From Escherichia coli (lineage in GTDB: Bacteria > Pseudomonadota > Gammaproteobacteria > Enterobacterales > Enterobacteriaceae), in NCBI RefSeq assembly GCF_051903065.1, contig NZ_CP178439.1: 64,000 bases of DNA; one strand, given 5' to 3'. Under the pieces are notes generated by a model, which was given only the letters and a program-made list of their open reading frames with translations, did not search any database and had not been told where the DNA came from. Both the position numbers and the translations under genes were made by a program. Shown piece by piece: positions 17,829 to 53,072 of the stretch. How positions within the stretch are numbered: the first letter of the stretch is position 1; each line of letters begins with the position of its first letter.

Positions 17829-17878
17829 GGGTAAACCAGAGGACGCTACTGCTTGCCAAAATCTTAAAGGGGAGCCCG

Positions 17879-18779
17879 CAGAATTCGGAAAAAATCGTAC
17901 GCTAAGGTTTTCCGGGCATCCGTAAGGGCCGAAACTTCCCGTCTTCCAGTCTGCGGCTCTGCCGCCAGACGTAATCGCCGGTTAGGTTGATGTGCTCCCA
18001 GCCCAGCGGCGACAGGAATTGCAGCAGCTCGCCGTCCACCGGCTTGCCGGCCTCGACCAACCCCTGGGTGGCGCGTTCCAGGTACACCGTGTTCCACAGC
18101 ACGATAGCCGCCGTCACCAGGTTGAGGCCGCTGGCCCGGTAGCGCTGCTGCTCGAAGCTCCGATCCCTGATTTCCCCAAGGCGGTTGAAGAACACCGCCC
18201 TGGCCAGCGAGTTGCGCGCCTCACCTTTGTTCAGGCCGGCATGCACGCGGCGGCGCAGTTCAACACTTTGCAGCCAGTCCAGGATGAACAGCGTGCGCTC
18301 GATCCGGCCCAGCTCGCGCAGGGCCACGGCCAGTCCGTTCTGGCGCGGGTAGCTGCCGAGCTTGCGCAGCATCAGCGAGGCGGTGACGGTGCCCTGCTTG
18401 ATCGAGCTGGCCAGGCGCAGGATGTCGTCCCAGTGGGCACGCACGTGCTTGATGTTCAGGGTGCCGCCGATCAGCGGGCGCAACGTCGGGTAGGCTTGCA
18501 CGCCCTGCGGCACGTACAGCTTGGTTTCGCCGAGGTCGCGGATGCGCGGCGCGAAGCGGAAGCCTAGCAGGTGCATCAGGGCAAAGACGTGATCGGTGAA
18601 GCCGGCCGTGTCGGTGTAGTGCTCCTCGATCCGCAGGTCGGACTCGTGGTACAGCAGGCCGTCGAGCACATAGGTGGAATCGCGGACGCCGACATTCACC
18701 ACGCGGGTGCTGAACGGCGCGTACTGGTCGGAGATATGGGTATAGAACAGCCGTCCCGGCTCGCTACCGTACTTCGGGT
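17879..18779 (-). mobile_element. tnpA: Tn1721/Tn501-type transposon end: 38-bp IR (17879..17916) plus 3' part of tnpA (pseudogene), truncated by IS26
   Basis: IR GGGGAGCCCGCAGAATTCGGAAAAAATCGTACGCTAAG; Tn3-family TnpA C-terminus ([12 protein letters not shown]...[32 protein letters not shown]) ends at the IS26 junction. Confidence 0.85.
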
Positions 18780-19599
18780 GGCACTGTTGCAAATAGTCGG
18801 TGGTGATAAACTTATCATCCCCTTTTGCTGATGGAGCTGCACATGAACCCATTCAAAGGCCGGCATTTTCAGCGTGACATCATTCTGTGGGCCGTACGCT
18901 GGTACTGCAAATACGGCATCAGTTACCGTGAGCTGCAGGAGATGCTGGCTGAACGCGGAGTGAATGTCGATCACTCCACGATTTACCGCTGGGTTCAGCG
19001 TTATGCGCCTGAAATGGAAAAACGGCTGCGCTGGTACTGGCGTAACCCTTCCGATCTTTGCCCGTGGCACATGGATGAAACCTACGTGAAGGTCAATGGC
19101 CGCTGGGCGTATCTGTACCGGGCCGTCGACAGCCGGGGCCGCACTGTCGATTTTTATCTCTCCTCCCGTCGTAACAGCAAAGCTGCATACCGGTTTCTGG
19201 GTAAAATCCTCAACAACGTGAAGAAGTGGCAGATCCCGCGATTCATCAACACGGATAAAGCGCCCGCCTATGGTCGCGCGCTTGCTCTGCTCAAACGCGA
19301 AGGCCGGTGCCCGTCTGACGTTGAACACCGACAGATTAAGTACCGGAACAACGTGATTGAATGCGATCATGGCAAACTGAAACGGATAATCAACGCCACG
19401 CTGGGATTTAAATCCATGAAGACGGCTTACGCCACCATCAAAGGTATTGAGGTGATGCGTGCACTACGCAAAGGCCAGGCCTCAGCATTTTATTATGGTG
19501 ATCCCCTGGGCGAAATGCGCCTGGTAAGCAGAGTTTTTGAAATGTAAGGCCTTTGAATAAGACAAAAGGCTGCCTCATCGCTAACTTTGCAACAGTGCC
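18780..19599 (+). mobile_element. tnpA: IS26 copy 2, transposase CDS 18843..19547, Asn at residue 184 (KRIINATLG)
   Basis: Both 14-bp IRs present; GGC to AAC codon change relative to copy 1; flanks do not match. Confidence 0.95.
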
Positions 19600-19953
19600 G
19601 ACAAGAGTACGCCGCAGCTCGATCTTTTGGCTCGTGTCGAACGAGAGCTACCGGTGCGGCTCGACCAAGAGCGCACCGATATGGTTGTTTGCCATGGTGA
19701 TCCCTGCATGCCGAACTTCATGGTGGACCCTAAAACTCTTCAATGCACGGGTCTGATCGACCTTGGGCGGCTCGGAACAGCAGATCGCTATGCCGATTTG
19801 GCACTCATGATTGCTAACGCCGAAGAGAACTGGGCAGCGCCAGATGAAGCAGAGCGCGCCTTCGCTGTCCTATTCAATGTATTGGGGATCGAAGCCCCCG
19901 ACCGCGAACGCCTTGCCTTCTATCTGCGATTGGACCCTCTGACTTGGGGTTGA
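19600..19953 (+). pseudogene. strA: aph(3'')-Ib (strA) 3' fragment, 5'-truncated by IS26
   Basis: C-terminal 117 codons of StrA in frame from the IS26 boundary. Confidence 0.85.
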
Positions 19954-20789
19954 TGTTCATGCCGCCTGTTTTTCCTGCTCATTGGCACGTTTCGCAACCT
20001 GTTCTCATTGCGGACACCTTTTCCAGCCTCGTTTGGAAAGTTTCATTGCCAGACGGGACTCCTGCAATCGTCAAGGGATTGAAACCTATAGAAGACATTG
20101 CTGATGAACTGCGCGGGGCCGACTATCTGGTATGGCGCAATGGGAGGGGAGCAGTCCGGTTGCTCGGTCGTGAGAACAATCTGATGTTGCTCGAATATGC
20201 CGGGGAGCGAATGCTCTCTCACATCGTTGCCGAGCACGGCGACTACCAGGCGACCGAAATTGCAGCGGAACTAATGGCGAAGCTGTATGCCGCATCTGAG
20301 GAACCCCTGCCTTCTGCCCTTCTCCCGATCCGGGATCGCTTTGCAGCTTTGTTTCAGCGGGCGCGCGATGATCAAAACGCAGGTTGTCAAACTGACTACG
20401 TCCACGCGGCGATTATAGCCGATCAAATGATGAGCAATGCCTCGGAACTGCGTGGGCTACATGGCGATCTGCATCATGAAAACATCATGTTCTCCAGTCG
20501 CGGCTGGCTGGTGATAGATCCCGTCGGTCTGGTCGGTGAAGTGGGCTTTGGCGCCGCCAATATGTTCTACGATCCGGCTGACAGAGACGACCTTTGTCTC
20601 GATCCTAGACGCATTGCACAGATGGCGGACGCATTCTCTCGTGCGCTGGACGTCGATCCGCGTCGCCTGCTCGACCAGGCGTACGCTTATGGGTGCCTTT
20701 CCGCAGCTTGGAACGCGGATGGAGAAGAGGAGCAACGCGATCTAGCTATCGCGGCCGCGATCAAGCAGGTGCGACAGACGTCATACTAG
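19953..20789 (+). CDS. strB: Aminoglycoside 6-phosphotransferase APH(6)-Id (streptomycin resistance)
   Basis: 278-aa protein MFMPPVFPAHWHVSQ...; start overlaps strA stop as in the strAB operon. Confidence 0.9.
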   Translation: MFMPPVFPAHWHVSQPVLIADTFSSLVWKVSLPDGTPAIVKGLKPIEDIADELRGADYLVWRNGRGAVRLLGRENNLMLLEYAGERMLSHIVAEHGDYQATEIAAELMAKLYAASEEPLPSALLPIRDRFAALFQRARDDQNAGCQTDYVHAAIIADQMMSNASELRGLHGDLHHENIMFSSRGWLVIDPVGLVGEVGFGAANMFYDPADRDDLCLDPRRIAQMADAFSRALDVDPRRLLDQAYAYGCLSAAWNADGEEEQRDLAIAAAIKQVRQTSY

Positions 20790-21368
20790 ATATCAAGCGA
20801 CTTCTCCTATCCCCTGGGAACACATCAATCTCACCGGAGAATATCGCTGGCCAAAGCCTTAGCGTAGGATTCCGCCCCTTCCCGCAAACGACCCCTGGAA
20901 GCCCCGTAGCGACGCGGAGAGGGGCGAGACAAGCCAAGGGCGCAGGCTCGATGCGCAGCACGACATAGCCGGTTCTCGCAAGGACGAGAATTTCCCTGCG
21001 GTGCCCCTCAAGTGTCAATGAAAGTTTCCAACGCGAGCCATTCGCGAGAGCCTTGAGTCCACGCTAGATCTATCTCATCTGCGCAAGGCAGAACGTGAAG
21101 ACGGCCGCCCTGGACCTCGCCCGCGAGCGCCAGGCGCACGAGGCCGGCGCGCGGACCCGCGCCACGGCCCACGAGCGGACGCCGCAGCAGGAGCGCCAGA
21201 AGGCCGCCAGAGAGGCCGAGCGCGGCCGTGAGGCTTGGACGCTAGGGCAGGGCATGAAAAAGCCCGTAGCGGGCTGCTACGGGCGTCTGACGCGGTGGAA
21301 AGGGGGAGGGGATGTTGTCTACATGGCTCTGCTGTAGTGAGTGGGTTGCGCTCCGGCAGCGGTCCTGA

Positions 21369-22019
21369 TCAATCGTCACCCTTTCTCGGTCCTTCAACGT
21401 TCCTGACAACGAGCCTCCTTTTCGCCAATCCATCGACAATCACCGCGAGTCCCTGCTCGAACGCTGCGTCCGGATCGGCTTCGTCGAAGGCGTCTATCGC
21501 GGCCCGCAACAGCGGCGAGAGCGGAGCCTGTTCAACGGTGCCGCCGCGCTCGCCGGCATCGCTGTCGCCGGCCTGCTCCTCAAGCACGGCCCCAACAGTG
21601 AAGTAGCTGATTGTCATCAGCGCATTGACGGCGTCCCCGGCCGAAAAACCCGCCTCGCAGAGGAAGCGAAGCTGCGCGTCGGCCGTTTCCATCTGCGGTG
21701 CGCCCGGTCGCGTGCCGGCATGGATGCGCGCGCCATCGCGGTAGGCGAGCAGCGCCTGCCTGAAGCTGCGGGCATTCCCGATCAGAAATGAGCGCCAGTC
21801 GTCGTCGGCTCTCGGCACCGAATGCGTATGATTCTCCGCCAGCATGGCTTCGGCCAGTGCGTCGAGCAGCGCCCGCTTGTTCCTGAAGTGCCAGTAAAGC
21901 GCCGGCTGCTGAACCCCCAACCGTTCCGCCAGTTTGCGTGTCGTCAGACCGTCTACGCCGACCTCGTTCAACAGGTCCAGGGCGGCACGGATCACTGTAT
22001 TCGGCTGCAACTTTGTCAT
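21369..22019 (-). CDS. tetR(A): Tetracycline repressor TetR(A)
   Basis: 216-aa protein MTKLQPNTVIRAALDLLNEVG..., divergent from tetA. Confidence 0.9.
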   Translation of the reverse strand: MTKLQPNTVIRAALDLLNEVGVDGLTTRKLAERLGVQQPALYWHFRNKRALLDALAEAMLAENHTHSVPRADDDWRSFLIGNARSFRQALLAYRDGARIHAGTRPGAPQMETADAQLRFLCEAGFSAGDAVNALMTISYFTVGAVLEEQAGDSDAGERGGTVEQAPLSPLLRAAIDAFDEADPDAAFEQGLAVIVDGLAKRRLVVRNVEGPRKGDD

Positions 22020-22025
22020 GCTTGA

Positions 22026-22076
22026 CACTTTATCACTGATAAACATAATATGTCCACCAACTTATCAGTGATAAAG
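22026..22076. promoter_or_regulatory. tet operator palindromes in the tetR-tetA intergenic region
   Basis: ACTTTATCACTGATAAAC and CAACTTATCAGTGATAAAG palindromes read directly. Confidence 0.7.
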
Positions 22077-22124
22077 AATCCGCGCGTTCAATCGGACCAG
22101 CGGAGGCTGGTCCGGAGGCCAGAC

Positions 22125-23324
22125 GTGAAACCCAACAGACCCCTGATCGTAATTCTGAGCACTGTCGCGCTCGACGCTGTCGGCATCGGCCTGATTATGC
22201 CGGTGCTGCCGGGCCTCCTGCGCGATCTGGTTCACTCGAACGACGTCACCGCCCACTATGGCATTCTGCTGGCGCTGTATGCGTTGATGCAATTTGCCTG
22301 CGCACCTGTGCTGGGCGCGCTGTCGGATCGTTTCGGGCGGCGGCCGGTCTTGCTCGTCTCGCTGGCCGGCGCTGCTGTCGACTACGCCATCATGGCGACG
22401 ACGCCTTTCCTTTGGGTTCTCTATATCGGGCGGATCGTGGCCGGCATCACCGGGGCGACTGGGGCGGTAGCCGGCGCTTATATTGCCGATATCACTGATG
22501 GCGATGAGCGCGCGCGGCACTTCGGCTTCATGAGCGCCTGTTTCGGGTTCGGGATGGTCGCGGGACCTGTGCTCGGTGGGCTGATGGGCGGTTTCTCCCC
22601 CCACGCTCCGTTCTTCGCCGCGGCAGCCTTGAACGGCCTCAATTTCCTGACGGGCTGTTTCCTTTTGCCGGAGTCGCACAAAGGCGAACGCCGGCCGTTA
22701 CGCCGGGAGGCTCTCAACCCGCTCGCTTCGTTCCGGTGGGCCCGGGGCATGACCGTCGTCGCCGCCCTGATGGCGGTCTTCTTCATCATGCAACTTGTCG
22801 GACAGGTGCCGGCCGCGCTTTGGGTCATTTTCGGCGAGGATCGCTTTCACTGGGACGCGACCACGATCGGCATTTCGCTTGCCGCATTTGGCATTCTGCA
22901 TTCACTCGCCCAGGCAATGATCACCGGCCCTGTAGCCGCCCGGCTCGGCGAAAGGCGGGCACTCATGCTCGGAATGATTGCCGACGGCACAGGCTACATC
23001 CTGCTTGCCTTCGCGACACGGGGATGGATGGCGTTCCCGATCATGGTCCTGCTTGCTTCGGGTGGCATCGGAATGCCGGCGCTGCAAGCAATGTTGTCCA
23101 GGCAGGTGGATGAGGAACGTCAGGGGCAGCTGCAAGGCTCACTGGCGGCGCTCACCAGCCTGACCTCGATCGTCGGACCCCTCCTCTTCACGGCGATCTA
23201 TGCGGCTTCTATAACAACGTGGAACGGGTGGGCATGGATTGCAGGCGCTGCCCTCTACTTGCTCTGCCTGCCGGCGCTGCGTCGCGGGCTTTGGAGCGGC
23301 GCAGGGCAACGAGCCGATCGCTGA
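22125..23324 (+). CDS. tet(A): Tetracycline efflux MFS transporter TetA(A), GTG start
   Basis: 399-aa protein MKPNRPLIVILSTVALDAVGIGLIMPVLPGLLRDL... within ORF 22050..23324. Confidence 0.9.
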   Translation: MKPNRPLIVILSTVALDAVGIGLIMPVLPGLLRDLVHSNDVTAHYGILLALYALMQFACAPVLGALSDRFGRRPVLLVSLAGAAVDYAIMATTPFLWVLYIGRIVAGITGATGAVAGAYIADITDGDERARHFGFMSACFGFGMVAGPVLGGLMGGFSPHAPFFAAAALNGLNFLTGCFLLPESHKGERRPLRREALNPLASFRWARGMTVVAALMAVFFIMQLVGQVPAALWVIFGEDRFHWDATTIGISLAAFGILHSLAQAMITGPVAARLGERRALMLGMIADGTGYILLAFATRGWMAFPIMVLLASGGIGMPALQAMLSRQVDEERQGQLQGSLAALTSLTSIVGPLLFTAIYAASITTWNGWAWIAGAALYLLCLPALRRGLWSGAGQRADR

Positions 23325-23355
23325 TCGTGGAAACGATAGGCCTATGCCATGCGGG

Positions 23356-24240
23356 TCAAGGCGACTTCCGGCAAGCTATACGCGCCCTAGGAGTGCGGTT
23401 GGAACGTTGGCCCAGCCAGATACTCCCGATCACGAGCAGGACGCCGATGATTTGAAGCGCACTCAGCGTCTGATCCAAGAACAACCATCCTAGCAACACG
23501 GCGGTCCCCGGGCTGAGAAAGCCCAGTAAGGAAACAACTGTAGGTTCGAGTCGCGAGATCCCCCGGAACCAAAGGAAGTAGGTTAAACCCGCTCCGATCA
23601 GGCCGAGCCACGCCAGGCCGAGAACATTGGTTCCTGTAGGCATCGGGATTGGCGGATCAAACACTAAAGCTACTGGAACGAGCAGAAGTCCTCCGGCCGC
23701 CAGTTGCCAGGCGGTAAAGGTGAGCAGAGGCACGGGAGGTTGCCACTTGCGGGTCAGCACGGTTCCGAACGCCATGGAAACCGCCCCCGCCAGGCCCGCT
23801 GCGACGCCGACAGGATCTAGCGCTGCGTTTGGTGTCAACACCAACAGCGCCACGCCCGCAGTTCCGCAAATAGCCCCCAGGACCGCCATCAATCGTATCG
23901 GGCTACCTAGCAGAGCGGCAGAGATGAACACGACCATCAGCGGCTGCACAGCGCCTACCGTCGCCGCGACCCCGCCCGGCAGGCGGTAGACCGAAATAAA
24001 CAACAAGCTCCAGAATAGCGAAATATTAAGTGCGCCGAGGATGAAGATGCGCATCCACCAGATTCCCGTTGGAATCTGTCGGACGATCATCACGAGCAAT
24101 AAACCCGCCGGCAACGCCCGCAGCATCGCGACCGTCATCGGTGAGAAGTTCGGCAGGTATTGGGTGGTGACAATGTAGGTGCTGCCCCAAATGGCAGGTG
24201 CTATCGCTGTGAACAATAAATCGGGCGTGCGTAATGACAT
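23356..24240 (-). CDS. pecM: EamA/DMT family transporter PecM-like (Tn1721 tet module)
   Basis: 294-aa 10-TM protein convergent with tetA, as in Tn1721. Confidence 0.8.
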   Translation of the reverse strand: MSLRTPDLLFTAIAPAIWGSTYIVTTQYLPNFSPMTVAMLRALPAGLLLVMIVRQIPTGIWWMRIFILGALNISLFWSLLFISVYRLPGGVAATVGAVQPLMVVFISAALLGSPIRLMAVLGAICGTAGVALLVLTPNAALDPVGVAAGLAGAVSMAFGTVLTRKWQPPVPLLTFTAWQLAAGGLLLVPVALVFDPPIPMPTGTNVLGLAWLGLIGAGLTYFLWFRGISRLEPTVVSLLGFLSPGTAVLLGWLFLDQTLSALQIIGVLLVIGSIWLGQRSNRTPRARIACRKSP

Positions 24241-24704
24241 GCGATTACAAGACCTCCGCTACGGCGATGGGTTTTTGAGAGTTGCAGGCGCCGCGATGAC
24301 CGCACCCTGACTTGGACTGGCCCTGCCTCGCACCAATCCACCTGCGGCTATGGCCGCGATCATGCGAGGCCCGAAAATTACACGACCTGTACACGTCCGC
24401 CGAACCCGGAACGCAACAGAGCTTCGTGGGCATCCCGATCCGGGTCGTAGCAGCAGTCCTGGACCAAACGCACGTCGTAGTCCGCATCACTAGCCCAGGC
24501 GACGCTTGAAAGAACAACGCCGGTGGTGCTTATCCCGGCCATGACAAGCGTGCTTACGCCGCGCGTCCGAAGGTCGGCGTCGAGCGCCGTGCCATAAAAG
24601 ACGCTGGCTCGCGGACATGCATAGAAAAGGTCGCCCCGTTCGATCGCAAGCCCTTCGACGGGCAGACCGGTGCGAAATCGTCCGCTCGGGAGATACGGTG
24701 AGAT

Positions 24705-25589
24705 TTGGCGATTCGTCGCCGGCGGCGCATGTTCATACTCTTCGCCGAGCGAAAAGTTGGGGAACAGCACGGGCCGGCCGCGCAAGGCGTGCTGGCAGCC
24801 GTGCAGACCCTGCGTGAGATGAACGCCGACAACCTGCGCAAGGTGCCGGCCGATGCACCCACGGCCTTCATCAAGCCGCGCTGGAAGCCGCTGGTGATCA
24901 CCCCGGAAGGCCTCGACCGGAAATTCTACGAAATCTGCGCCCTGTCCGAGCTGAAGAACGCCCTGCGCTCCGGCGACATCTGGGTCAAGGGCTCGCGGCA
25001 GTTCCGCGACTTCGACGACTACCTGCTGCCGGCCGAGAAGTTCGCCGCACTCAAGCGCGAGCAGGCCCTGCCCCTGGCGATCAACCCGAACAGCGACCAG
25101 TACCTGGAAGAGCGTTTGCAGCTGCTGGACGAGCAGTTGGCCACCGTCACCCGCCTGGCCAAGGACAACGAGCTGCCCGATGCCATCCTCACCGAGTCAG
25201 GGCTGAAAATCACCCCGCTGGATGCGGCGGTGCCGGATCGGGCGCAGGCGCTGATCGACCAAACCAGCCAGTTACTGCCGCGCATCAAGATCACCGAACT
25301 GCTGATGGACGTGGACGACTGGACGGGCTTCAGCCGCCACTTCACCCACTTGAAGGACGGGGCCGAGGCCAAAGACAGGACGTTGCTGCTGTCCGCAATC
25401 CTCGGTGATGCGATCAACCTCGGGCTGACCAAGATGGCCGAGTCGAGCCCCGGCCTGACCTACGCCAAGCTGTCCTGGCTGCAAGCCTGGCACATCCGCG
25501 ACGAAACCTATTCGGCGGCCTTGGCCGAGCTGGTCAACCACCAGTATCGCCACGCCTTTGCCGCCCACTGGGGCGACGGCACGACCTCA
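24705..25589 (+). pseudogene. tnpA: Tn3-family (Tn1721-type) tnpA internal fragment, 3'-truncated by IS26
   Basis: 348-aa ORF with Tn3-family TnpA central-region similarity, ends at the IS26 boundary 25590. Confidence 0.7.
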
Positions 25590-26409
25590 GGCACTGTTGC
25601 AAAGTTAGCGATGAGGCAGCCTTTTGTCTTATTCAAAGGCCTTACATTTCAAAAACTCTGCTTACCAGGCGCATTTCGCCCAGGGGATCACCATAATAAA
25701 ATGCTGAGGCCTGGCCTTTGCGTAGTGCACGCATCACCTCAATACCTTTGATGGTGGCGTAAGCCGTCTTCATGGATTTAAATCCCAGCGTGGCGTTGAT
25801 TATCCGTTTCAGTTTGCCATGATCGCATTCAATCACGTTGTTCCGGTACTTAATCTGTCGGTGTTCAACGTCAGACGGGCACCGGCCTTCGCGTTTGAGC
25901 AGAGCAAGCGCGCGACCATAGGCGGGCGCTTTATCCGTGTTGATGAATCGCGGGATCTGCCACTTCTTCACGTTGTTGAGGATTTTACCCAGAAACCGGT
26001 ATGCAGCTTTGCTGTTACGACGGGAGGAGAGATAAAAATCGACAGTGCGGCCCCGGCTGTCGACGGCCCGGTACAGATACGCCCAGCGGCCATTGACCTT
26101 CACGTAGGTTTCATCCATGTGCCACGGGCAAAGATCGGAAGGGTTACGCCAGTACCAGCGCAGCCGTTTTTCCATTTCAGGCGCATAACGCTGAACCCAG
26201 CGGTAAATCGTGGAGTGATCGACATTCACTCCGCGTTCAGCCAGCATCTCCTGCAGCTCACGGTAACTGATGCCGTATTTGCAGTACCAGCGTACGGCCC
26301 ACAGAATGATGTCACGCTGAAAATGCCGGCCTTTGAATGGGTTCATGTGCAGCTCCATCAGCAAAAGGGGATGATAAGTTTATCACCACCGACTATTTGC
26401 AACAGTGCC
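25590..26409 (-). mobile_element. tnpA: IS26 copy 3, transposase CDS 25642..26346, Asn at residue 184
   Basis: IRs at both ends; inverted relative to copy 2. Confidence 0.95.
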
Positions 26410-26566
26410 CTTCATCATTATGAATATGAAAAAGCCGAATGCGGCGACTACCACATTTATCCCCGGGGCTATGGACGCAGCAACTTTGCAGGGCGCAATC
26501 GAAAAAGCTCGCGGGGCCTAAAGTTACTTTCACTTTTGATGAGTACGGCCATGCCGGTCATGGCCG

Positions 26567-27826
26567 CTACGCTTTTACAACGAGTAATTCATCCCAGCGG
26601 GTCGTATATCTCGGTGATAGCATGGCCTGTTTCATACGAAAATCCTGTTGAATGCCTTCCCCCAGCAAAAACAGAGCTCCGCGCTTTTCTTTATTGAACC
26701 GGTCCATAACTTTCATCAGTGCCTGACTGCCAGGCCTGGCCGGGCGCTCATCAAACAGGCTGAGTTGCTCTGTGCCGTCAGTCATAGCGGAGAGCATTAC
26801 CCCAGCTTTCGCATACGCTATCCCGGGTTTGTAAATGCGGTTCAGGATGGTCATGGCTGCATCAACCAGATCGCGGGTGTCCTGTGTAGCGGTAAGCGGC
26901 TCGATACCACAATTGCTGTAGCGGTTTTCACCTTGCGCATAATTGCTGCTCTGAATGAAGACTGTGATTTGACGGGTCCACGAGCCATCCTTGCGCAGCT
27001 GCTCTGCCGCCCGGGCGGTAAAAAATGAAACTGCCTCATGTAGCTTGCCTATCTCATTAAGGCGCTGACCAAAACTTCTGGAAACGATAATCTGTTGCCG
27101 GACAGGAGGGGATTCATGCAGCCGGAAACATGGTTCGCCATGCAGTTCCCGCCAGGTACGCTCGATTTCAACGCCAAAGCTTTTACGTAAAAAGCGAACG
27201 TCGCTATTATAAAAATCACCGGCAGTGATGATCCCGAAAGCCGACAGGCGTTCACTGATCTTTTGACCAATACCCCATATTTCTCTGGTACTGATAAGGC
27301 CCAGGAGCTTCCTGATCCTGGCCTGATCAGTCAAAACTACAACCCCGCCTGTAGCTGCCCATCGTTTGCTCGCATAGGTGCATAATTTAGCCAGGGTTTT
27401 GGTGCTTGAACACCCCACACCACAGGTAAGGGACAGATTATGAAGAAGTGTACTTCTGATCAACCGGCCGTAATCTTCATAATCTATTATCTTGTTCATG
27501 TTTTTCAATAACATGAAATTTTCATCTATGCTATATCGACTCGATTGAGGCGCGAAGCTTTCCAGCGTTTCATGGAAGCGATTTGAGTAGTCTTCATACA
27601 AAGTAAAGTTAGAGCTCCGGACTTCGATCTGGTGTTGCTGAATCAAATCCCTGCACTTAAAAATTGGGGTCCCACGCTTAATACCAACGCTTTTAGCCAG
27701 TTTATTCATTGCAATGACGGACGAATCGTTATTGCTGGCTATGATGAGCGGCTTTTTTGCCAGCTTGGGATCCATCGCACACTCAAATGCCGCATAGGCC
27801 CCGTTAATATCAACGTGCATGTACAT
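26567..27826 (-). CDS. umuC: Y-family translesion DNA polymerase subunit, UmuC/MucB/ImpB-like
   Basis: 419-aa protein, MYMHVDINGAYAAFE N-terminus typical of UmuC; overlaps the upstream umuD-like gene. Confidence 0.8.
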   Translation of the reverse strand: MYMHVDINGAYAAFECAMDPKLAKKPLIIASNNDSSVIAMNKLAKSVGIKRGTPIFKCRDLIQQHQIEVRSSNFTLYEDYSNRFHETLESFAPQSSRYSIDENFMLLKNMNKIIDYEDYGRLIRSTLLHNLSLTCGVGCSSTKTLAKLCTYASKRWAATGGVVVLTDQARIRKLLGLISTREIWGIGQKISERLSAFGIITAGDFYNSDVRFLRKSFGVEIERTWRELHGEPCFRLHESPPVRQQIIVSRSFGQRLNEIGKLHEAVSFFTARAAEQLRKDGSWTRQITVFIQSSNYAQGENRYSNCGIEPLTATQDTRDLVDAAMTILNRIYKPGIAYAKAGVMLSAMTDGTEQLSLFDERPARPGSQALMKVMDRFNKEKRGALFLLGEGIQQDFRMKQAMLSPRYTTRWDELLVVKA

Positions 27827-28244
27827 GGCTAAACTGATTCAGTGCAAAGGTGACGACGCCCCATATCTCAAGGGATTCGGGATTTACACGTATCGGCTTA
27901 TAGGCTGGATTAGAAGGCATCAAAAGCAGCTCAGGATACGTGTGTAAGATCTTTACCGTGAACTCTCCATCCACCAGCGCAACGACGATAGAGCCGTGTC
28001 GTGCCGTTAAAGACCGATCCACAACCAGAATAGCGCCATCATTGATACCGGCATTGATCATACTGAGGCCCGCCGCCCTGACAAAGAAGGTTGAGGGGCG
28101 GTTACGGACTACATATTCATGCAAATTTAATTCATTATCTTCATGCCCGGCGCACGGACTCATCACTCCACAGCTCAGTAAATCACTGAAAAAAGGTGCC
28201 ATTTCGTAAGGCTTGTTGCTAATGTGCTCAAGGATAACAGACAT
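27810..28244 (-). CDS. umuD: UmuD/MucA/ImpA-like S24 peptidase (LexA-like self-cleaving)
   Basis: 144-aa protein with S24 LexA-like fold motifs (GLSMINAGINDGAILVVDRS). Confidence 0.8.
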   Translation of the reverse strand: MSVILEHISNKPYEMAPFFSDLLSCGVMSPCAGHEDNELNLHEYVVRNRPSTFFVRAAGLSMINAGINDGAILVVDRSLTARHGSIVVALVDGEFTVKILHTYPELLLMPSNPAYKPIRVNPESLEIWGVVTFALNQFSHVHAR

Positions 28245-28263
28245 AGCTACACTCGAATTCTCA

Positions 28264-28283
28264 TACTGTATGTATAAACAGTA
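28264..28283. promoter_or_regulatory. LexA box TACTGTATGTATAAACAGTA upstream of umuD-like gene
   Basis: Perfect CTGT-N8-ACAG, 20 bp upstream of the start codon. Confidence 0.75.
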
Positions 28284-28437
28284 TTGCGAGTTACAGAGAA
28301 AAGATCAAATCTCTCCGGTAACGCTATCGAGCCTGACGAAAAATTAAGCTTTGTCACAAACACCAAAAACCATCTTTTACCGATAATGGCGAGCTGGCCT
28401 ACGAAGAAGGTATACAAGCTAGGATGAAAGGATTCTG

Positions 28438-29055
28438 ATGCCCCTCCCACCAAATTTTTTATCTCCTGAAGACCAGGCTGAGTACGATGCTTATATGTCA
28501 AGATTCAGCGAGATAAATCACTATTATGATTATCACACTGTCCCCGTGATTGACTGGTTCTTTAAACAAGCAACCGAGGCGTTGCATCACGAACTATGGA
28601 TACCGGCCTGTACGAGCTTCCTGAACGGGATTGAAACATCACTCATGGTTACGTTGAAGTCGCTGATGCTGAAACCAACAGTTAACGATCAGCATGCAGC
28701 TCCTGAGCTGGTGGACTTGGAGGGTATCTCCGTAATGAGTAATGCCTTACTGAGAAAGGCCAAGCAGGAAGGGGTGCCGGTAGAATTACTTTCATTTCCA
28801 GCCGAGCAGGATATGTTGGTTAAGGTAGCAGCCGGGAGAACACCTGAAGCAGAAATTGTCAGGCTGAGAAACAACCTATGCCATGGCAACATTCTGGAGT
28901 TTATCATGTCTGTTGATATCGGTACTTCAGGACCCATACGTATTTTTACGCCTGAATGCTGTCGTGAACTGGCGCATGAACTTTCGTCCATTTCCAGGAA
29001 TTGGGTGGTAGGTTTGCACAAGTACTGGGTCGACAACAATCTGATTTCCCCCTGA
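28438..29055 (+). CDS. Hypothetical protein (205 aa)
   Basis: ORF; no family recognised. Confidence 0.5.
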   Translation: MPLPPNFLSPEDQAEYDAYMSRFSEINHYYDYHTVPVIDWFFKQATEALHHELWIPACTSFLNGIETSLMVTLKSLMLKPTVNDQHAAPELVDLEGISVMSNALLRKAKQEGVPVELLSFPAEQDMLVKVAAGRTPEAEIVRLRNNLCHGNILEFIMSVDIGTSGPIRIFTPECCRELAHELSSISRNWVVGLHKYWVDNNLISP

Positions 29056-29204
29056 AGCTCCTTGAACCTTGCTTTCAGAAGCCAGGTGTATGAAACCCTA
29101 TTGGATAATATTTAAAGCCAAAATATGGGGATCTCGTATTCGGTGACAGGCATGGTATAAATGATGTGTCTGAGCAACCATCATTGATAATCATGGAGTG
29201 AGTC

Positions 29205-29561
29205 ATGAAATTAAAATACCTTCTGTTATGTGCAACTCTGTCTGTCGCCTTTACCTCCTCTGCGGTCCTTGCATCTGAAAACGGGAAAAAACCGATCCCG
29301 GGCAAATCAGATGTGATGGTTGCCGATATTTGTTTAAAACCTGAAATCCAAAGTGAAACCGATTATAAAAAAACGAAAGAACTGGTAAGGACTGAGTTTG
29401 AAGAAAACTTGCCTGTTGGATCTAAAATCAAAGAAAAAGACTTGAATGCCGTAATTGAAGCATTTGCTACTCGTAAAAGGGACACGCCGGAGCGAGCGGA
29501 CCATTGCCAAGAAAACGTACGTGAAAGATACTGGGAAATGAACCCGGTGAAAGATAAATAA
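29205..29561 (+). CDS. Secreted hypothetical protein (118 aa) with signal peptide
   Basis: N-terminal MKLKYLLLCATLSVAFTSSAVLA signal sequence. Confidence 0.5.
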   Translation: MKLKYLLLCATLSVAFTSSAVLASENGKKPIPGKSDVMVADICLKPEIQSETDYKKTKELVRTEFEENLPVGSKIKEKDLNAVIEAFATRKRDTPERADHCQENVRERYWEMNPVKDK

Positions 29562-29586
29562 AATACATTCACGTTGTATAATATAG

Positions 29587-29612
29587 AGGCTTCAATTCTG
29601 AAGCCTTTTTTA
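29587..29612 (+). terminator. Rho-independent terminator
   Basis: AGGCTTCA-ATTC-TGAAGCCT hairpin followed by TTTTTT. Confidence 0.5.
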
Positions 29613-29810
29613 TTTTCAGATTATTTTGATTCTGACAATAATGAAATAAAATTGAGCATTATCGCTTAACACTGGATAAGAAAAAGAGCCATCTTTTATA
29701 TTGGACAGGTTTGAATTTAAGGAATTTTGGATTCACAGTTTTCTGCGTTATTAGACGGCAAGGGCAATCTGGTATGATTCACCTAACACACGAATCTGGA
29801 AGGAAAAGTA

Positions 29811-29955
29811 TATGGGTGACCTGGTCAGCAAAAATAGCATTGACCGTTTAGAGCGATTTCATTCTTTGCTGGCGGGTCAGTACTGGACGTCCACTGACAG
29901 CATCCCTGAAGAGGGTATTGTGGCAGGGGATACACTGCTCATTACGTCTTTGCGT
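29811..29955 (+). pseudogene. N-terminal 48 codons of an unknown gene, cut by IS26
   Basis: ATG with GGAAGGA upstream; reading frame runs into the IS26 left end. Confidence 0.3.
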
Positions 29956-30775
29956 GGCACTGTTGCAAATAGTCGGTGGTGATAAACTTATCATCCCCTT
30001 TTGCTGATGGAGCTGCACATGAACCCATTCAAAGGCCGGCATTTTCAGCGTGACATCATTCTGTGGGCCGTACGCTGGTACTGCAAATACGGCATCAGTT
30101 ACCGTGAGCTGCAGGAGATGCTGGCTGAACGCGGAGTGAATGTCGATCACTCCACGATTTACCGCTGGGTTCAGCGTTATGCGCCTGAAATGGAAAAACG
30201 GCTGCGCTGGTACTGGCGTAACCCTTCCGATCTTTGCCCGTGGCACATGGATGAAACCTACGTGAAGGTCAATGGCCGCTGGGCGTATCTGTACCGGGCC
30301 GTCGACAGCCGGGGCCGCACTGTCGATTTTTATCTCTCCTCCCGTCGTAACAGCAAAGCTGCATACCGGTTTCTGGGTAAAATCCTCAACAACGTGAAGA
30401 AGTGGCAGATCCCGCGATTCATCAACACGGATAAAGCGCCCGCCTATGGTCGCGCGCTTGCTCTGCTCAAACGCGAAGGCCGGTGCCCGTCTGACGTTGA
30501 ACACCGACAGATTAAGTACCGGAACAACGTGATTGAATGCGATCATGGCAAACTGAAACGGATAATCAACGCCACGCTGGGATTTAAATCCATGAAGACG
30601 GCTTACGCCACCATCAAAGGTATTGAGGTGATGCGTGCACTACGCAAAGGCCAGGCCTCAGCATTTTATTATGGTGATCCCCTGGGCGAAATGCGCCTGG
30701 TAAGCAGAGTTTTTGAAATGTAAGGCCTTTGAATAAGACAAAAGGCTGCCTCATCGCTAACTTTGCAACAGTGCC
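29956..30775 (+). mobile_element. tnpA: IS26 copy 4, transposase CDS 30019..30723, Asn at residue 184
   Basis: Both IRs present; flanks ctttgcgt / cactgatc do not match. Confidence 0.95.
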
Positions 30776-31220
30776 CACTGATCCGCATGCCCGTTCCATA
30801 CAGAAGCTGGGCGAACAAACGATGCTCGCCTTCCAGAAAACCGAGGATGCGAACCACTTCATCCGGGGTCAGCACCACCGGCAAGCGCCGCGACGGCCGA
30901 GGTCTTCCGATCTCCTGAAGCCAGGGCAGATCCGTGCACAGCACCTTGCCGTAGAAGAACAGCAAGGCCGCCAATGCCTGACGATGCGTGGAGACCGAAA
31001 CCTTGCGCTCGTTCGCCAGCCAGGACAGAAATGCCTCGACTTCGCTGCTGCCCAAGGTTGCCGGGTGACGCACACCGTGGAAACGGATGAAGGCACGAAC
31101 CCAGTGGACATAAGCCTGTTCGGTTCGTAAACTGTAATGCAAGTAGCGTATGCGCTCACGCAACTGGTCCAGAACCTTGACCGAACGCAGCGGTGGTAAC
31201 GGCGCAGTGGCGGTTTTCAT
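30776..31220 (-). pseudogene. intI1: Class 1 integron integrase intI1, N-terminal 148 codons, truncated by IS26
   Basis: [49 protein letters not shown]... ends at the IS26 boundary. Confidence 0.85.
31105..31133 (+). promoter_or_regulatory. Integron cassette promoter Pc, hybrid type (-35 TGGACA, 17-bp spacer, -10 TAAACT); P2 lacks the GGG insertion
   Basis: Hexamers read at 31105..31110 and 31128..31133 inside intI1. Confidence 0.6.
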
Positions 31221-41810: not shown

Positions 41811-41906
41811 ATGATTAACCTGTTAATCATCGTTCTCAGGGCTGTGGTCGCCGTTGCAAACGCGCTGATTGCAGTTCTGGAACTGATCCGTCAGTTCATC
41901 GACTGA
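41811..41906 (+). CDS. Candidate type I toxin, DinQ/TisB-like 31-aa hydrophobic peptide (MINLLIIVLRAVVAVANALIAVLELIRQFID)
   Basis: Hand-translated ORF; LELIR motif shared with DinQ as recalled; SD within a CTCCAG-N7-CTGGAG hairpin; terminator-like hairpin at 41928..41954. Confidence 0.45.
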   Translation: MINLLIIVLRAVVAVANALIAVLELIRQFID

Positions 41907-41972
41907 TGACTGCGGAAACGTAACTAAGGGCAGGAAGTGCACCGCTTCCTGCCCTTTAACAAAGGAGGATTT

Positions 41973-42152
41973 ATGGATTTTATGAGCATTTTGGGGCGCT
42001 GTTTACTTCTTCCTTTCCCTGTTGCGATGTTTGTCGGTTGCCTGTTTCCAGGCATTGATGATCGTTTTACTGGAATGTTCATGAGTTTTATTGTCGGTTG
42101 TCTATCGTGGTATATCACCAAGCCAAAACCGCAAAAGGCTGAGGTCGCGTAA
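41973..42152 (+). CDS. Small membrane protein (59 aa)
   Basis: Strong RBS AAGGAGG 6 nt upstream of ATG; two hydrophobic helices. Confidence 0.4.
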   Translation: MDFMSILGRCLLLPFPVAMFVGCLFPGIDDRFTGMFMSFIVGCLSWYITKPKPQKAEVA

Positions 42153-42538
42153 GCGGCCTTTTTTACGTCTCTCGTTTAATTCCTCGCCATTCTGTCCAGA
42201 AATAGTATTGCGGCTAATCAAGCCAATTCCTACGTCTTTTCGCTGTTGCACGATCTAAAAGAAAATATGGGAAAATTTCATGAAAGTATGGTACTAAAGG
42301 GTCTTTAATTCCTTTATCTTGTTCCTTCAACTGCACAGTATCTCGTAAAAACCAACAAGCCGGTTGTTTAAAAAACGCTCTTAGCGTAGGATGTTTTCCA
42401 TTTTCCAAGTGGAACCCAAGTACGATGCCCGCGAAAAAGACAGCCCTCTTATGAAGAGGGCTGTTATCTGATATAGGCTTGTTATGGTCTCACTCTTGAT
42501 TAATCAGGTGTATGTGCAACCTTGGTGCACACAATCGA

Positions 42539-44440
42539 TTATGCAGCTTGATGATCTGAAGTGTTACCGGAAGTATCTTCGGTTCGTTTTTTGTTTGTGA
42601 TGGATTCACTTTTATCTCGCAAGGCTGAGTCTATGACGTTAAACACCTTTTCCCACCGAGAAATCCAACCGCATATAGGTTGAACACGACATTTTTCCAG
42701 GAAGAAATTTAATAAGTTAGTTTTTTTATTATCTTGCACTTTGAATGGTTCAATTACATCATCGGCATCAACAGATTTTCCTCCGATAAACCACGACGGA
42801 TGGGTTTCCATTGCGTCAGAAATGAAATCGTCAGGGAAGAGGCCTTCAATAGCAAAACCACTTCTTACAGAAATATAGTCTTTATTTGACTCAAATCTAA
42901 TTTGTTTTTTACCAAAGTAGCTTTGTAATCTGGTTCTTTCTTTGACCCCAGCTTCATCACCGTCAAAAACAGATATTACGGGGACATCTTTAGAAATAAA
43001 CTCGTAGCACCCTTTCAAGAATCCCCCAAGTTGACTGACTCCACCAAACTCATCAACTTTAGCACTCCTCAGAAAAGGCCATCTGTTCTTAAACTCATCA
43101 TCTTCAGATGTCAATTTCAATATTGATTCTATATATTGTTTGTCGGTGATACCTTCAACGAAAACTGCACTACTTGATATGTTAAAGAAATCAGAAAATC
43201 TGACCCCAAGATTTTCTCTTATGCTTGCAACTGCATTAAATCTTTTTTCATGCTTTTTATCTTTTGTAACACCGGCGTCATCTTTATATAACTCAATGAT
43301 CTTACTTGGCTCATCACTGACAAATGATAAGGAATGAGTTGTAATAAGAACATAAGCAACATCCATCAGTGATTTGAAAATGTGATTACATGACCGGCCT
43401 AATGAGGGATGCAAGAAAGACTCAGGCTCCTCAACCATCCAAATCGTTTTCTTACCTAGAGTAAGTTTTCTCTCTGAAATAGATTTAAATGAAGAAAATA
43501 AAGATAAGCATTGTAGCCCCATACCTTTACTCGATATCACATTCTCAATAGTATCTTTTATTGAAACCTCAAAGCGACCAAATAACTCATCAAGAGATGG
43601 CGGAGCTTTAATAATAAAGCTACAGTCATCTATACCGCTTAGAATCATTTCATTTGTTATCTTTTCAGATACTTCCAACAGTTTATCATGAATCACTTGA
43701 ACCGATGTTTTCATGGCTGAAGCTACTTCACTCCTAACATATGGAACTAATAGATTATGATATATATCATCAATACTTTTTGACGATGGTATATACACAC
43801 ACTCAAAACTAGAAAGTATTTTTTCTATGAACCTTCTTTCAACAGATGTATACATGGAGGAAGTTACTTCAGGTTTCCTCTTGTAACCTTTAAAGACAGT
43901 GTAAAAGTAATTGTTTTTATTAGATATTGTCAGATGTACGGTCACTTCGTTTTGAGGTGACTTTAACCTGGAGTCATCAATCATGTTAAACAGCTGCAAA
44001 TATCTATCTCTCAAACTTAGCTTTCTGCCTCTTGATTGAGTTGGTTTTGATTCTTGTTGTTTAGAGCTGCCATCATCAAATGAAATAGAATTACTAGGCT
44101 CTTCTTGCTCCCCTAAAACACCAAGTTCAATAATCGAGTCATCATCGTCATCATCATCGTCTTGGCTCAAATCCTCAGAGACATCATCTAGCTCACTTTC
44201 AGAAAAAGTAAATCTTACAGCAAAACTAGTTTGTCCTTGCTTAACACCATGTGGCTTATCTTTTTCATAGTCATATAAGTCAGGATTAAATTTTCCTTCA
44301 AAAAAAACCCTCATAGCTTTTAATAGGTTTGTTTTACCACTGTTGTTTTGCCCAACAATGGTTAATCCATTAAAGTTATCAGAGGATATCTCCCCTGAAA
44401 TAGACCTATACTGAGAAACTTTAAATGATACTATTTCCAT
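42539..44440 (-). CDS. OLD-family ABC-type ATPase fused to a TOPRIM nuclease domain (633 aa)
   Basis: Walker A GQNNSGKT, Walker B IWMVEEPESFLHP, H-loop ITTHS, then TOPRIM-like VFVEGITDKQ and FDGDEAG; eight-Asp run; AT-rich. Confidence 0.7.
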   Translation of the reverse strand: MEIVSFKVSQYRSISGEISSDNFNGLTIVGQNNSGKTNLLKAMRVFFEGKFNPDLYDYEKDKPHGVKQGQTSFAVRFTFSESELDDVSEDLSQDDDDDDDDSIIELGVLGEQEEPSNSISFDDGSSKQQESKPTQSRGRKLSLRDRYLQLFNMIDDSRLKSPQNEVTVHLTISNKNNYFYTVFKGYKRKPEVTSSMYTSVERRFIEKILSSFECVYIPSSKSIDDIYHNLLVPYVRSEVASAMKTSVQVIHDKLLEVSEKITNEMILSGIDDCSFIIKAPPSLDELFGRFEVSIKDTIENVISSKGMGLQCLSLFSSFKSISERKLTLGKKTIWMVEEPESFLHPSLGRSCNHIFKSLMDVAYVLITTHSLSFVSDEPSKIIELYKDDAGVTKDKKHEKRFNAVASIRENLGVRFSDFFNISSSAVFVEGITDKQYIESILKLTSEDDEFKNRWPFLRSAKVDEFGGVSQLGGFLKGCYEFISKDVPVISVFDGDEAGVKERTRLQSYFGKKQIRFESNKDYISVRSGFAIEGLFPDDFISDAMETHPSWFIGGKSVDADDVIEPFKVQDNKKTNLLNFFLEKCRVQPICGWISRWEKVFNVIDSALRDKSESITNKKRTEDTSGNTSDHQAA

Positions 44441-44545
44441 TTTTCTTCCTACGATAGAATATTGCTCGGATTATCGACATTTTTTCCCAAGGCTTTAACT
44501 GTCTTTCGCTACTTGGATAAATGGCTCTTCCTCCACTGTTCTGCT

Positions 44546-45055
44546 TTATTTTCGCCAGAAAGCCCACCATGCATGTTGTTTGTCCTGAAGTGCTGCTTTA
44601 TCCTGAAGCAATTCAGCACTCACTGCCCCCTGAAGCACAGAAACGGCGTTTCTCGCGGCATTGCGACAGGAATCAATAACCTCTGGTTCGTTGGGCTTTC
44701 TGAGCAGGATAAATTGCGATACTTTGGACTGAGTATCAAAAGCATAGATTCGCAATTCAGGGGAGGATGTCAGGCTTACAATATTATGCAACCGCATATA
44801 ATTGGTGTAGTCCTTGCTACTTGGATCACATGATTCATAAAGATATTTCTGCATTAGCGTTTGCGATGAAGAAAGAAAATCTATATAGCGGTCAGTTTTT
44901 TTATCTATATCCCGCAGTCGCTGAGCTATTGCATCTTTTCTTATTTCGTGGCAGTGTGTTAATTTCAGTGTAATCCAGCCACCAACAATGGTGATTAATG
45001 CACCCAGCCCAATTTTAACGGCATTATCAGCCACATCTACCCACTCAGTTGCCAT
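44546..45055 (-). CDS. Hypothetical protein with N-terminal TM helix (169 aa)
   Basis: ORF 105 bp upstream of and co-oriented with the OLD-like gene. Confidence 0.45.
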   Translation of the reverse strand: MATEWVDVADNAVKIGLGALITIVGGWITLKLTHCHEIRKDAIAQRLRDIDKKTDRYIDFLSSSQTLMQKYLYESCDPSSKDYTNYMRLHNIVSLTSSPELRIYAFDTQSKVSQFILLRKPNEPEVIDSCRNAARNAVSVLQGAVSAELLQDKAALQDKQHAWWAFWRK

Positions 45056-45182
45056 CTGTTACGTGTTCTTCCTGTGATGATCATGGTCGCTAGTATAATT
45101 CTCCGGCTGACTGGACATACAGCATTTTCTGTCCAAGATTAATAACCTCGAACTGCAACACAATGCCGCAGATGATGCAAAG

Positions 45183-46031
45183 GGGGAGCCCGCAGAATTC
45201 GGAAAAAATCGTACGCTAAGGTTTTCCGGGCATCCGTAAGGGCCGAAACTTCCCGTCTTCCAGTCTGCGGCTCTGCCGCCAGACGTAATCGCCGGTTAGG
45301 TTGATGTGCTCCCAGCCCAGCGGCGACAGGAATTGCAGCAGCTCGCCGTCCACCGGCTTGCCGGCCTCGACCAACCCCTGGGTGGCGCGTTCCAGGTACA
45401 CCGTGTTCCACAGCACGATAGCCGCCGTCACCAGGTTGAGGCCGCTGGCCCGGTAGCGCTGCTGCTCGAAGCTCCGATCCCTGATTTCCCCAAGGCGGTT
45501 GAAGAACACCGCCCTGGCCAGCGAGTTGCGCGCCTCACCTTTGTTCAGGCCGGCATGCACGCGGCGGCGCAGTTCAACACTTTGCAGCCAGTCCAGGATG
45601 AACAGCGTGCGCTCGATCCGGCCCAGCTCGCGCAGGGCCACGGCCAGTCCGTTCTGGCGCGGGTAGCTGCCGAGCTTGCGCAGCATCAGCGAGGCGGTGA
45701 CGGTGCCCTGCTTGATCGAGCTGGCCAGGCGCAGGATGTCGTCCCAGTGGGCACGCACGTGCTTGATGTTCAGGGTGCCGCCGATCAGCGGGCGCAACGT
45801 CGGGTAGGCTTGCACGCCCTGCGGCACGTACAGCTTGGTTTCGCCGAGGTCGCGGATGCGCGGCGCGAAGCGGAAGCCTAGCAGGTGCATCAGGGCAAAG
45901 ACGTGATCGGTGAAGCCGGCCGTGTCGGTGTAGTGCTCCTCGATCCGCAGGTCGGACTCGTGGTACAGCAGGCCGTCGAGCACATAGGTGGAATCGCGGA
46001 CGCCGACATTCACCACGCGGGTGCTGAACGG
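45183..46031 (-). mobile_element. tnpA: Second Tn1721-type transposon end: 38-bp IR (45183..45220) plus tnpA 3' fragment, truncated by IS26 52 bp further 3' in tnpA than the copy at 17879..18779
   Basis: Identical IR and TnpA C-terminus; retained tnpA is 52 bp shorter than in the first copy. Confidence 0.85.
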
Positions 46032-46851
46032 GGCACTGTTGCAAATAGTCGGTGGTGATAAACTTATCATCCCCTTTTGCTGATGGAGCTGCACATGAAC
46101 CCATTCAAAGGCCGGCATTTTCAGCGTGACATCATTCTGTGGGCCGTACGCTGGTACTGCAAATACGGCATCAGTTACCGTGAGCTGCAGGAGATGCTGG
46201 CTGAACGCGGAGTGAATGTCGATCACTCCACGATTTACCGCTGGGTTCAGCGTTATGCGCCTGAAATGGAAAAACGGCTGCGCTGGTACTGGCGTAACCC
46301 TTCCGATCTTTGCCCGTGGCACATGGATGAAACCTACGTGAAGGTCAATGGCCGCTGGGCGTATCTGTACCGGGCCGTCGACAGCCGGGGCCGCACTGTC
46401 GATTTTTATCTCTCCTCCCGTCGTAACAGCAAAGCTGCATACCGGTTTCTGGGTAAAATCCTCAACAACGTGAAGAAGTGGCAGATCCCGCGATTCATCA
46501 ACACGGATAAAGCGCCCGCCTATGGTCGCGCGCTTGCTCTGCTCAAACGCGAAGGCCGGTGCCCGTCTGACGTTGAACACCGACAGATTAAGTACCGGAA
46601 CAACGTGATTGAATGCGATCATGGCAAACTGAAACGGATAATCGGCGCCACGCTGGGATTTAAATCCATGAAGACGGCTTACGCCACCATCAAAGGTATT
46701 GAGGTGATGCGTGCACTACGCAAAGGCCAGGCCTCAGCATTTTATTATGGTGATCCCCTGGGCGAAATGCGCCTGGTAAGCAGAGTTTTTGAAATGTAAG
46801 GCCTTTGAATAAGACAAAAGGCTGCCTCATCGCTAACTTTGCAACAGTGCC
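46032..46851 (+). mobile_element. tnpA: IS26 copy 8, transposase CDS 46095..46799, Gly at residue 184
   Basis: Both IRs present; flanks do not match. Confidence 0.95.
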
Positions 46852-48168: not shown

Positions 48169-48482
48169 AGAAGCCGAACCAAGACGACGAGCCGTTTTTC
48201 ATCACCGAGGAGATTGCGGCCGAAATGATCGCCGGCGGCTATGAGTTCGAGCTGCCGCCCATTCCTTGCACCATCCGCCTACGCGACGTGCTGGAGCGCA
48301 TGACCGATGCTGAGCTAGCATTGCAGCCGGGCGAGATCGCCGACCAGGAGCGTGAACGCTGCCGGCGCAAGCCGTGTTCAACCTCATGATCTGGTCATGG
48401 TATTTTTCATGGCACTGAGCCTGATAGTTCTTGCAAATTGTTGTCACTAAAGGGTTTTGTGTGCTTGTTTACAATCGAGTGG

Positions 48483-52772: not shown

Positions 52773-53072
52773 CGGGCACTGGCTGGCAATGTCTAGCAAC
52801 GGCAGGCATTTCGGCTGAGGGTAAAAGAACTTTCCGCTAAGCGATAGACTGTATGTAAACACAGTATTGCAAGGACGCGGAACATGCCTCATGTGGCGGC
52901 CAGGACGGCCAGCCGGGATCGGGATACTGGTCGTTACCAGAGCCACCGACCCGAGCAAACCCTTCTCTATCAGATCGTTGACGAGTATTACCCGGCATTC
53001 GCTGCGCTTATGGCAGAGCAGGGAAAGGAATTGCCGGGCTATGTGCAACGGGAATTTGAAGAATTTCTCCAA
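52767..53072 (+). mobile_element. Partial ISCR2 (5' ~300 bp only)
   Basis: Matches 48483..48790; diverges after GAATTTCTCCAA. Confidence 0.8.

Follow-up and report, generated by a model that had tools for sequence, protein, structure and literature searches.

How did three differently truncated pieces of one transposase gene, the tnpA of Tn1721, come to lie in a single resistance region, each against a copy of the insertion sequence IS26? The question is posed by a 64,000-nt stretch of the Escherichia coli contig NZ_CP178439.1 (assembly GCF_051903065.1), referred to here as the window, to whose positions all coordinates refer and which plasmid comparison identifies as part of an IncHI2 multidrug-resistance plasmid family. 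An earlier note on this DNA had read the pieces as the record of IS26 striking the same gene on at least three independent occasions. We favor, at a probability of roughly 80%, an account in which they are inert scars of two Tn1721-family insertions that IS26 has since reshuffled.

The remnants were aligned to the tnpA of NZ_CP055062.1 (8787-11786), a copy retaining mcp-tnpR-tnpA; this reference gene is 2,967 nt long, and its inverted repeat (IR) ends on the outer side at nt 3000. Fragment A (17869-18779, minus strand, 911 bp) consists of the IR and tnpA nt 3000 to 2090 (amino acids 698-988) and is 100% identical to the reference. Fragment B (24770-25589, plus strand, 820 bp) covers nt 1212 to 2031 (amino acids 405-677) at 99.9%, with one mismatch at nt 1214, and fragment C (45183-46031, minus strand, 849 bp) comprises the IR and nt 3000 to 2152 (amino acids 718-988), again at 100%. 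The alignment bears out the existence of three Tn1721-type remnants, each abutting IS26, and their derivation from one Tn1721-like type of ancestor rather than from different Tn3-family elements. The positions assigned to A needed correction: it had been given a start at 17879, and because of this 10-bp error its cut point and that of C (nt 2090 and 2152) had been placed 52 bp apart when they are 62 bp apart. A 1-bp indel between A and C in a first BLAST comparison falls in the 3-4 bases beside the fragments, which align to each other without a gap. The plasmid pFBAOT6 was dropped as a Tn1721 reference, as it has only the tet module beside an ISPa38-type transposon. The Tn1722 copy of the reference used in its place (∼5700-11900 of NZ_CP055062.1) itself apparently lies inside an IS26, its flanks matching IS26 nt ∼25-470 and ∼465-579.

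One edge of each fragment is the base before a complete 820-bp IS26 (first bases 18780, 25590 and 46032). The fragments had been described as ending at IS26, which holds for one end of each but not for the other, this being the IR in A and C and the natural junction of the truncated Tn1721 gene (tnpA') in B. The 38-bp Tn1721 IR, GGGGAGCCCGCAGAATTCGGAAAAAATCGTACGCTAAG, is present with a tnpA 3' end, as had been noted, in two copies; there are exactly two, both on the plus strand: one is an exact 38-mer match at 17869-17906, in the position of IRR-II and adjoining IncHI2 backbone, and the other lies at 45183-45220. No third copy was found in the window, even allowing 8 mismatches. The stop codon of tnpA falls inside the IR (TAG at IR positions 34-36; for A, 17902-17904 on the minus strand). 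By Pfam and NCBIfam, B comes from the middle of the protein, and A and C from the C-terminal portion of the DDE domain; the Pfam profile DDE_Tnp_Tn3 is covered over 1-100 by B, 120-389 by A and 141-389 by C, and NCBIfam NF033527 also matches. In tblastn searches of the window, these three pieces alone represented Tn3-family TnpA (full TnpA as query), and Tn1722 tnpR and mcp were absent. Predicted open reading frames (ORFs) span all three IS26/tnpA junctions (17902-18852 and 45216-46622 on the minus strand, 24729-25751 on the plus strand); homology searches and exact-sequence look-ups returned no record of those across the A and B junctions. The IS26-derived leader fused to A is also the N terminus of three database proteins (P0053, P0055 and P0056), joined there to tnpA at another breakpoint, and further truncation points were seen among the fusion-ORF matches, e.g., IS26 after '...DETYS'.

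The left edge of B, which had been placed at 24705, proved not to be a break at all. Position 24705 is merely the first TTG of a mechanically called ORF; full-length tnpA copies in other plasmids align only from position 171-174 of a query starting at 24600, and the tnpA homology of B begins at 24770-24773 (nt 1212-1215). In Tn1721, Tn1722 is joined to a tet region, at whose end lie a second, truncated copy of tnpA and IRR-II, the third IR of the element (PMC5736529, summarising Allmeier et al. 1992), and the tnpA remnant of a related IncHI2 element measures 1,789 bp (PMC9019673), which in reference coordinates is nt 1212-3000. Because the natural tnpA' spans exactly this interval, the left boundary of B is ancestral Tn1721 architecture and involves no IS26 break. 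The pecM side of the tet module runs uninterrupted into B.

On the same backbone sequence as A, an intact tnpA' with IRR-II is found in both relatives that were compared, pPK5074-MCR1 (NZ_CP072803.1) and pXJW9B277-HI2-N (NZ_CP068042.1). Positions 19683-26492 of pPK5074-MCR1 equal 18780-25589 of the window (IS26, ΔstrA, strB, tetR, tetA, pecM and B), and its positions 26551-32492 equal 18779-12838 reversed (A and the backbone). What the window lacks is exactly 58 bp, pPK5074-MCR1 26493-26550, corresponding to tnpA nt 2032-2089. The backbone gene that was the target of A's insertion is uninterrupted in an R478-like IncHI2 plasmid (...GGAAGGTA|TTTAAGATTTTGG).

A sequence variant allows the IS26 copies that adjoin A and B to be traced. 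Complete IS26 copies in the window number eight, all of 820 bp, and there is one partial copy of 301 bp; they agree with the definition of the element (820 bp, 14-bp terminal IRs, the 234-amino-acid transposase Tnp26), match NF033587 transpos_IS6 (3.6e-83) and are annotated in the relatives as IS26 family transposase. Four of the eight complete copies (18780, 25590, 29956 and 53318) are IS26-v1, which carries GG→AA at IS26 nt 613-614 and hence Gly184Asn (G184N) in Tnp26; the other four (849, 33026, 35026 and 46032) are standard. The variant copies are those involved in recent rearrangements. In pPK5074-MCR1 there is a single donor IS26, a G184N copy between ΔtetA and ΔstrA, with the flanks AGCAGGAC|IS26|GACAAGAG. 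These flanks are parted in the window: the ΔtetA flank AGCAGGAC stands to the left of the copy at 53318-54137 (plus strand) and the ΔstrA flank GACAAGAG to the right of that at 18780-19599 (plus strand), with a third G184N copy (25590-26409, minus strand) inverted between them. This is the pattern expected if one donor IS26-v1 made two successive inverting replicative transpositions.

One of the two has left a complete signature. The copy at 25590 lies between B and the 8-bp sequence CTTCATCA (26410-26417, plus strand), and the oppositely oriented copy at 53318 is followed on its right by the reverse complement of that sequence, TGATGAAG (54138-54145, plus strand). In pPK5074-MCR1 the target is single and uninterrupted (6001-6008), between dsbA and umuC. 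He et al. 2015 (PMC4471558) described an inverted 8-bp duplication together with opposite IS26 copies as diagnostic of replicative transposition within one molecule in trans, and the 25590/53318 pair marks a 27-kb replicative inversion of 26410-53317. As for the other, because the IS26 copies adjacent to A and to B are both G184N like the donor in the relative, they point to one replicative inversion and a small deletion rather than to two insertions. A and B are two pieces of a single tnpA' copy that was split and had one part flipped, most likely by an IS26-v1 inversion.

Fragment C belongs to a different gene copy from a separate Tn1721-type insertion, because the sequences flanking the IR of A and of C differ (an IncHI2 backbone gene and IncX1 DNA, respectively) and each has an empty site in a relative. 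The flanks read ...CAAAG|IR for C and, in the ancestral orientation, IR|TTTAA... for A, with the partner ends outside the window; no 5-bp duplication, direct or inverted, links the two, consistent with two separate insertions. The empty site for C (...GATGCAAAG|GACAATT) is in the IncX1 plasmid pSA02DT09004001_37, to which the adjacent IncX1-derived segment (41300-45182, minus strand, left limit approximate; dqlB and genes for an AAA ATPase and an M14-like peptidase) is 92-99% identical. A contiguous empty site in the resistance region, sought with both IR flanks as one query, was not found; the query instead revealed the C flank to be IncX1-derived and not IncHI2 backbone. The window presents an IncX1-backbone-derived segment, with the type I toxin gene dqlB, embedded in an IncHI2 resistance region and carrying the Tn1721-type end of C.

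The prevalence of the three tnpA|IS26 junctions separates C from A and B in a second way. Junctions were searched for with 54-bp queries (27 + 27 bp), seeding only across the junction, in PLSDB (72,556 plasmids) and, for A and B, also in 5,426 complete E. coli genomes; 140-bp queries (100 bp of tnpA and 40 bp of IS26) had been uninformative, as separate tnpA and IS26 pieces were merged as one place. The C junction is present in 175 plasmids and in pXJW9B277-HI2-N, the A junction in 2 plasmids and the B junction in none, and neither of the latter was found in any complete E. coli genome. Going by these counts, the C junction is old and common and was inherited ready-made, and the A and B junctions are recent and near-private. 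C corresponds to the '848-bp ΔTnp1721' of PMC9019673. As it was formulated, the reading of three independent IS26 hits on one gene lacks support, since A and B belong to one tnpA' copy and C to another whose junction was inherited, although its count, at least three steps mediated by IS26, is probably correct.

Assembled into a history, these observations place at the start a tet module (tetR-tetA-pecM, the 1,789-bp tnpA' and IRR-II) in an IncHI2 backbone gene, as plasmid comparison indicates, with its Tn1722 half already replaced by strAB/Tn5393 and a single IS26-v1 between ΔtetA and ΔstrA, as in pPK5074-MCR1. IS26-v1 would then have transposed into tnpA' intramolecularly and replicatively in the inverting (trans) mode, flipping the segment from ΔstrA to pecM along with the proximal part of tnpA' (B) and leaving the distal part with the IR (A) on the backbone, so that each came to adjoin an IS26-v1. 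A further 66-bp IS26-adjacent deletion would have removed nt 2032-2089 (58 bp) plus the expected 8-bp overlap. In the second inversion, to which the duplicated target attests, the IS26-v1 adjacent to B moved into CTTCATCA between umuC and dsbA, flipping 26410-53317 and yielding the third IS26-v1 copy at 53318. C, as the IncX1 comparison shows, is the IR-bearing end of another Tn1721/Tn1722 insertion, this one in DNA of IncX1 origin; it was cut at nt 2152 long ago by a standard IS26 (Gly184; 46032-46851, plus strand) and passed on in that state.

Several points weigh against this history. The 18780/25590 pair has no inverted 8-bp duplication (CTTCGGGT versus the reverse complement of CGACCTCA); 58 bp are missing where an 8-bp overlap is expected, and the pair is in this unlike that at 25590/53318, which follows the pattern of He et al. 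(PMC4471558). We infer that an extra 66-bp IS26-adjacent deletion on one side accounts for the 58-bp gap. No intermediate plasmid representing the tnpA' split and the 66-bp deletion was found, and the two inversions may have taken place in either order. The breakpoint nt 2090|IS26 recurs in two unrelated plasmids, which means that the A junction might have been imported rather than made in place. Finally, eight complete and one partial near-identical IS26 in 64 kb, plus the 849-bp repeat formed by A and C, are conditions under which segments can be mis-joined, and the joins between IS26 copies and their flanks are taken from the assembly.

The alternative that survives best, though we consider it unlikely, is that a ready-made block of IR, tnpA (nt 3000 to 2090) and IS26 was imported and recombined with the resident tnpA' and IS26, with B arising separately. 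The carriers of the A junction, Klebsiella pneumoniae pYZ22CS094_2 and Proteus pT18, are unrelated plasmids with the same 54-bp junction, and a chance match of both base and orientation is improbable. However, both have standard IS26 where the window has G184N, the junction in pYZ22CS094_2 lies in another neighborhood (an IRR-I context, next to mph(A)), and no IncHI2 plasmid of PLSDB has the A junction. Import would also demand more steps, namely two crossovers plus a separate event for B.

The reading of the earlier note, in which IS26 inserted independently at three positions of one tnpA and the intervening parts were later lost, is very improbable. It would accommodate three distinct breakpoints, at nt 2031, 2090 and 2152, that coincide exactly with IS26 ends, and the fact that no 8-bp duplication ties A to B. 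It fails to explain why the other end of B is the natural start of tnpA', and the IRs of A and C differ in their flanks and have separate empty sites, which indicates different gene copies. The copies beside A and B are moreover G184N, the G184N copies bear the two original flanks of a single donor, and the C junction is inherited and widespread (175 plasmids).

We rank just after this, as about equally improbable, the idea that the recurrent nt 2090 breakpoint and the duplication-less 58-bp loss reflect a preferred IS26 target in tnpA or a non-canonical one-step IS26-v1 inversion-plus-deletion in place of two ordinary events; the breakpoint is seen in three unrelated contexts, beside IS26-v1 in the IncHI2 plasmid studied here and also in an IncFII plasmid of K. 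pneumoniae and a multi-replicon plasmid (IncN, IncU and others) of Proteus. That the arrangement of A, B and C is unreal and due to mis-assembly between IS26 copies is extremely unlikely despite the repeats mentioned above, as the tnpA|IS26 breakpoints are read-level features independent of scaffolding, a coherent history emerges from the inverted 8-bp duplication and from where G184N and standard copies lie, and 21 kb (33026-54137) are collinear with an independent complete plasmid.

Returning to two reshuffled insertions as the preferred reading, the question becomes what such scars can still do. It had been anticipated that they would form long direct repeats able to drive recombination between distant parts of the plasmid. 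This stands for A and C, which are identical over 849 bp in direct orientation (17869-18717 and 45183-46031, 27,314 bp from start to start), and it has a precedent in an experiment in which ΔTn1721 copies of 1,789 bp and 848 bp, co-oriented by inversion, were observed to recombine and release a plasmid (PMC9019673). It does not stand for B, which shares no tnpA sequence with A or C (nt 1212-2031 versus 2090-3000) and therefore cannot join such recombination, leaving A and C as the sole long tnpA repeat pair. A and C are direct only because the inversion of 26410-53317 flipped C; in pXJW9B277-HI2-N, C and tnpA' are in inverted orientation. Homologous recombination between A and C would be predicted to excise 27,314 bp with tet(A), strAB, umuDC, dfrA14, arr-2, aph(3')-Ia and the IncX1 segment. 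A nearly equivalent substrate exists in the co-oriented IS26 pair at 18780 and 46032, so the tnpA repeat adds little; together, the repeat and the adjacent co-oriented IS26 predict loss of a 27.3-kb block with resistance genes. By its gene content, nothing in the window should be able to transpose as Tn1721, because it lacks a complete DDE domain as well as tnpR, res and IRL, and its two IRs point the same way.

Much of this architecture has counterparts. PMC9019673, dealing with the variable regions of IncHI2 plasmids and with a plasmid that has integrated into the chromosome of Salmonella PJM1, describes the same ΔTn5393-strAB beside a Tn1721 tet module lacking Tn1722, with the 1,789-bp ΔTnp1721 and a second one of ∼848 bp elsewhere in the region; that system likewise combines IS26 with IS26-v1, inverting replicative transposition and two ΔTn1721 copies co-oriented by inversion. 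The window differs in that the 1,789-bp copy is itself split, into 820 bp and 911 bp with 58 bp lost, at two IS26 junctions that are rare or absent in the databases searched. With Tn1721 (PMC5736529) the window shares the 38-bp IR, the tnpA sequence and the order tetR-tetA-pecM followed by tnpA' from nt 1212; unlike Tn1721, it has neither the Tn1722 half (mcp, tnpR, res, full tnpA and IRL) nor IRR-I, its tnpA' is broken and its IRs are direct. Both pPK5074-MCR1 and pXJW9B277-HI2-N have the same backbone/IRR-II junction and are 99.9-100% identical to the window over shared modules, whereas their tnpA' is intact; pXJW9B277-HI2-N also shares the junction of C with IS26 and carries three remnants of Tn1721 tnpA, and pPK5074-MCR1 lacks C. 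The biology is not new, as IS26-cut Tn1721 remnants, IS26-v1 inversions and ΔTn1721 recombination have already been documented in this plasmid family, but good lineage markers for it are offered by the three tnpA breakpoints, at nt 2031, 2090 and 2152, and by the division of the IS26 copies into IS26-v1 and standard.

The sequences between A and B match those of pPK5074-MCR1. ΔstrA-strB and the Tn5393 end occupy 19600-21069 (plus strand), by the annotation of the collinear pPK5074-MCR1 and, at the IRR-I boundary, by comparison with pXJW9B277-HI2-N. They are followed by the Tn1721 tet module (21070-24769, plus strand: relic ORF, tetR(A), tet(A), pecM and spacer), which is 99.96% collinear with pXJW9B277-HI2-N 38471-42990. 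Gene positions in the module were transferred from the annotation of the relatives via collinearity offsets: tetR(A) at 21369-22019 (minus strand), tet(A) at 22125-23324 (plus strand) and pecM/EamA at 23356-24240 (minus strand). At 21069/21070 the Tn5393 (strAB) end meets the tet module at the exact base where IRR-I would end (…CTAGATC|TATCTCATC…); the whole Tn1722 half, IRR-I included, was cleanly replaced by strAB/Tn5393. An ORF at 24378-24770 (minus strand), annotated in relatives as 'isochorismatase family cysteine hydrolase', starts exactly at the natural junction between the pecM side and tnpA'.

The remaining IS26 copies lie away from the tnpA fragments. Complete ones are at 849-1668 (plus strand, standard), 29956-30775 (plus strand, IS26-v1), 33026-33845 (plus strand, standard) and 35026-35845 (minus strand, standard); the 301-bp partial copy, which retains one end only, is at 39111-39411 between a glutathione synthase gene and a ramA-like region and is annotated in pXJW9B277-HI2-N as a partial IS6 transposase. 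Beside the IS26-v1 at 53318, a 251-bp tet(A) fragment (53067-53317) is an exact inverted repeat of 23046-23296 in the intact tet(A). On either side of floR lies the same sequence, repeated exactly and directly over at least 300 bp (48482-48781 and 52766-53065), probably a partial ISCR2 duplication.

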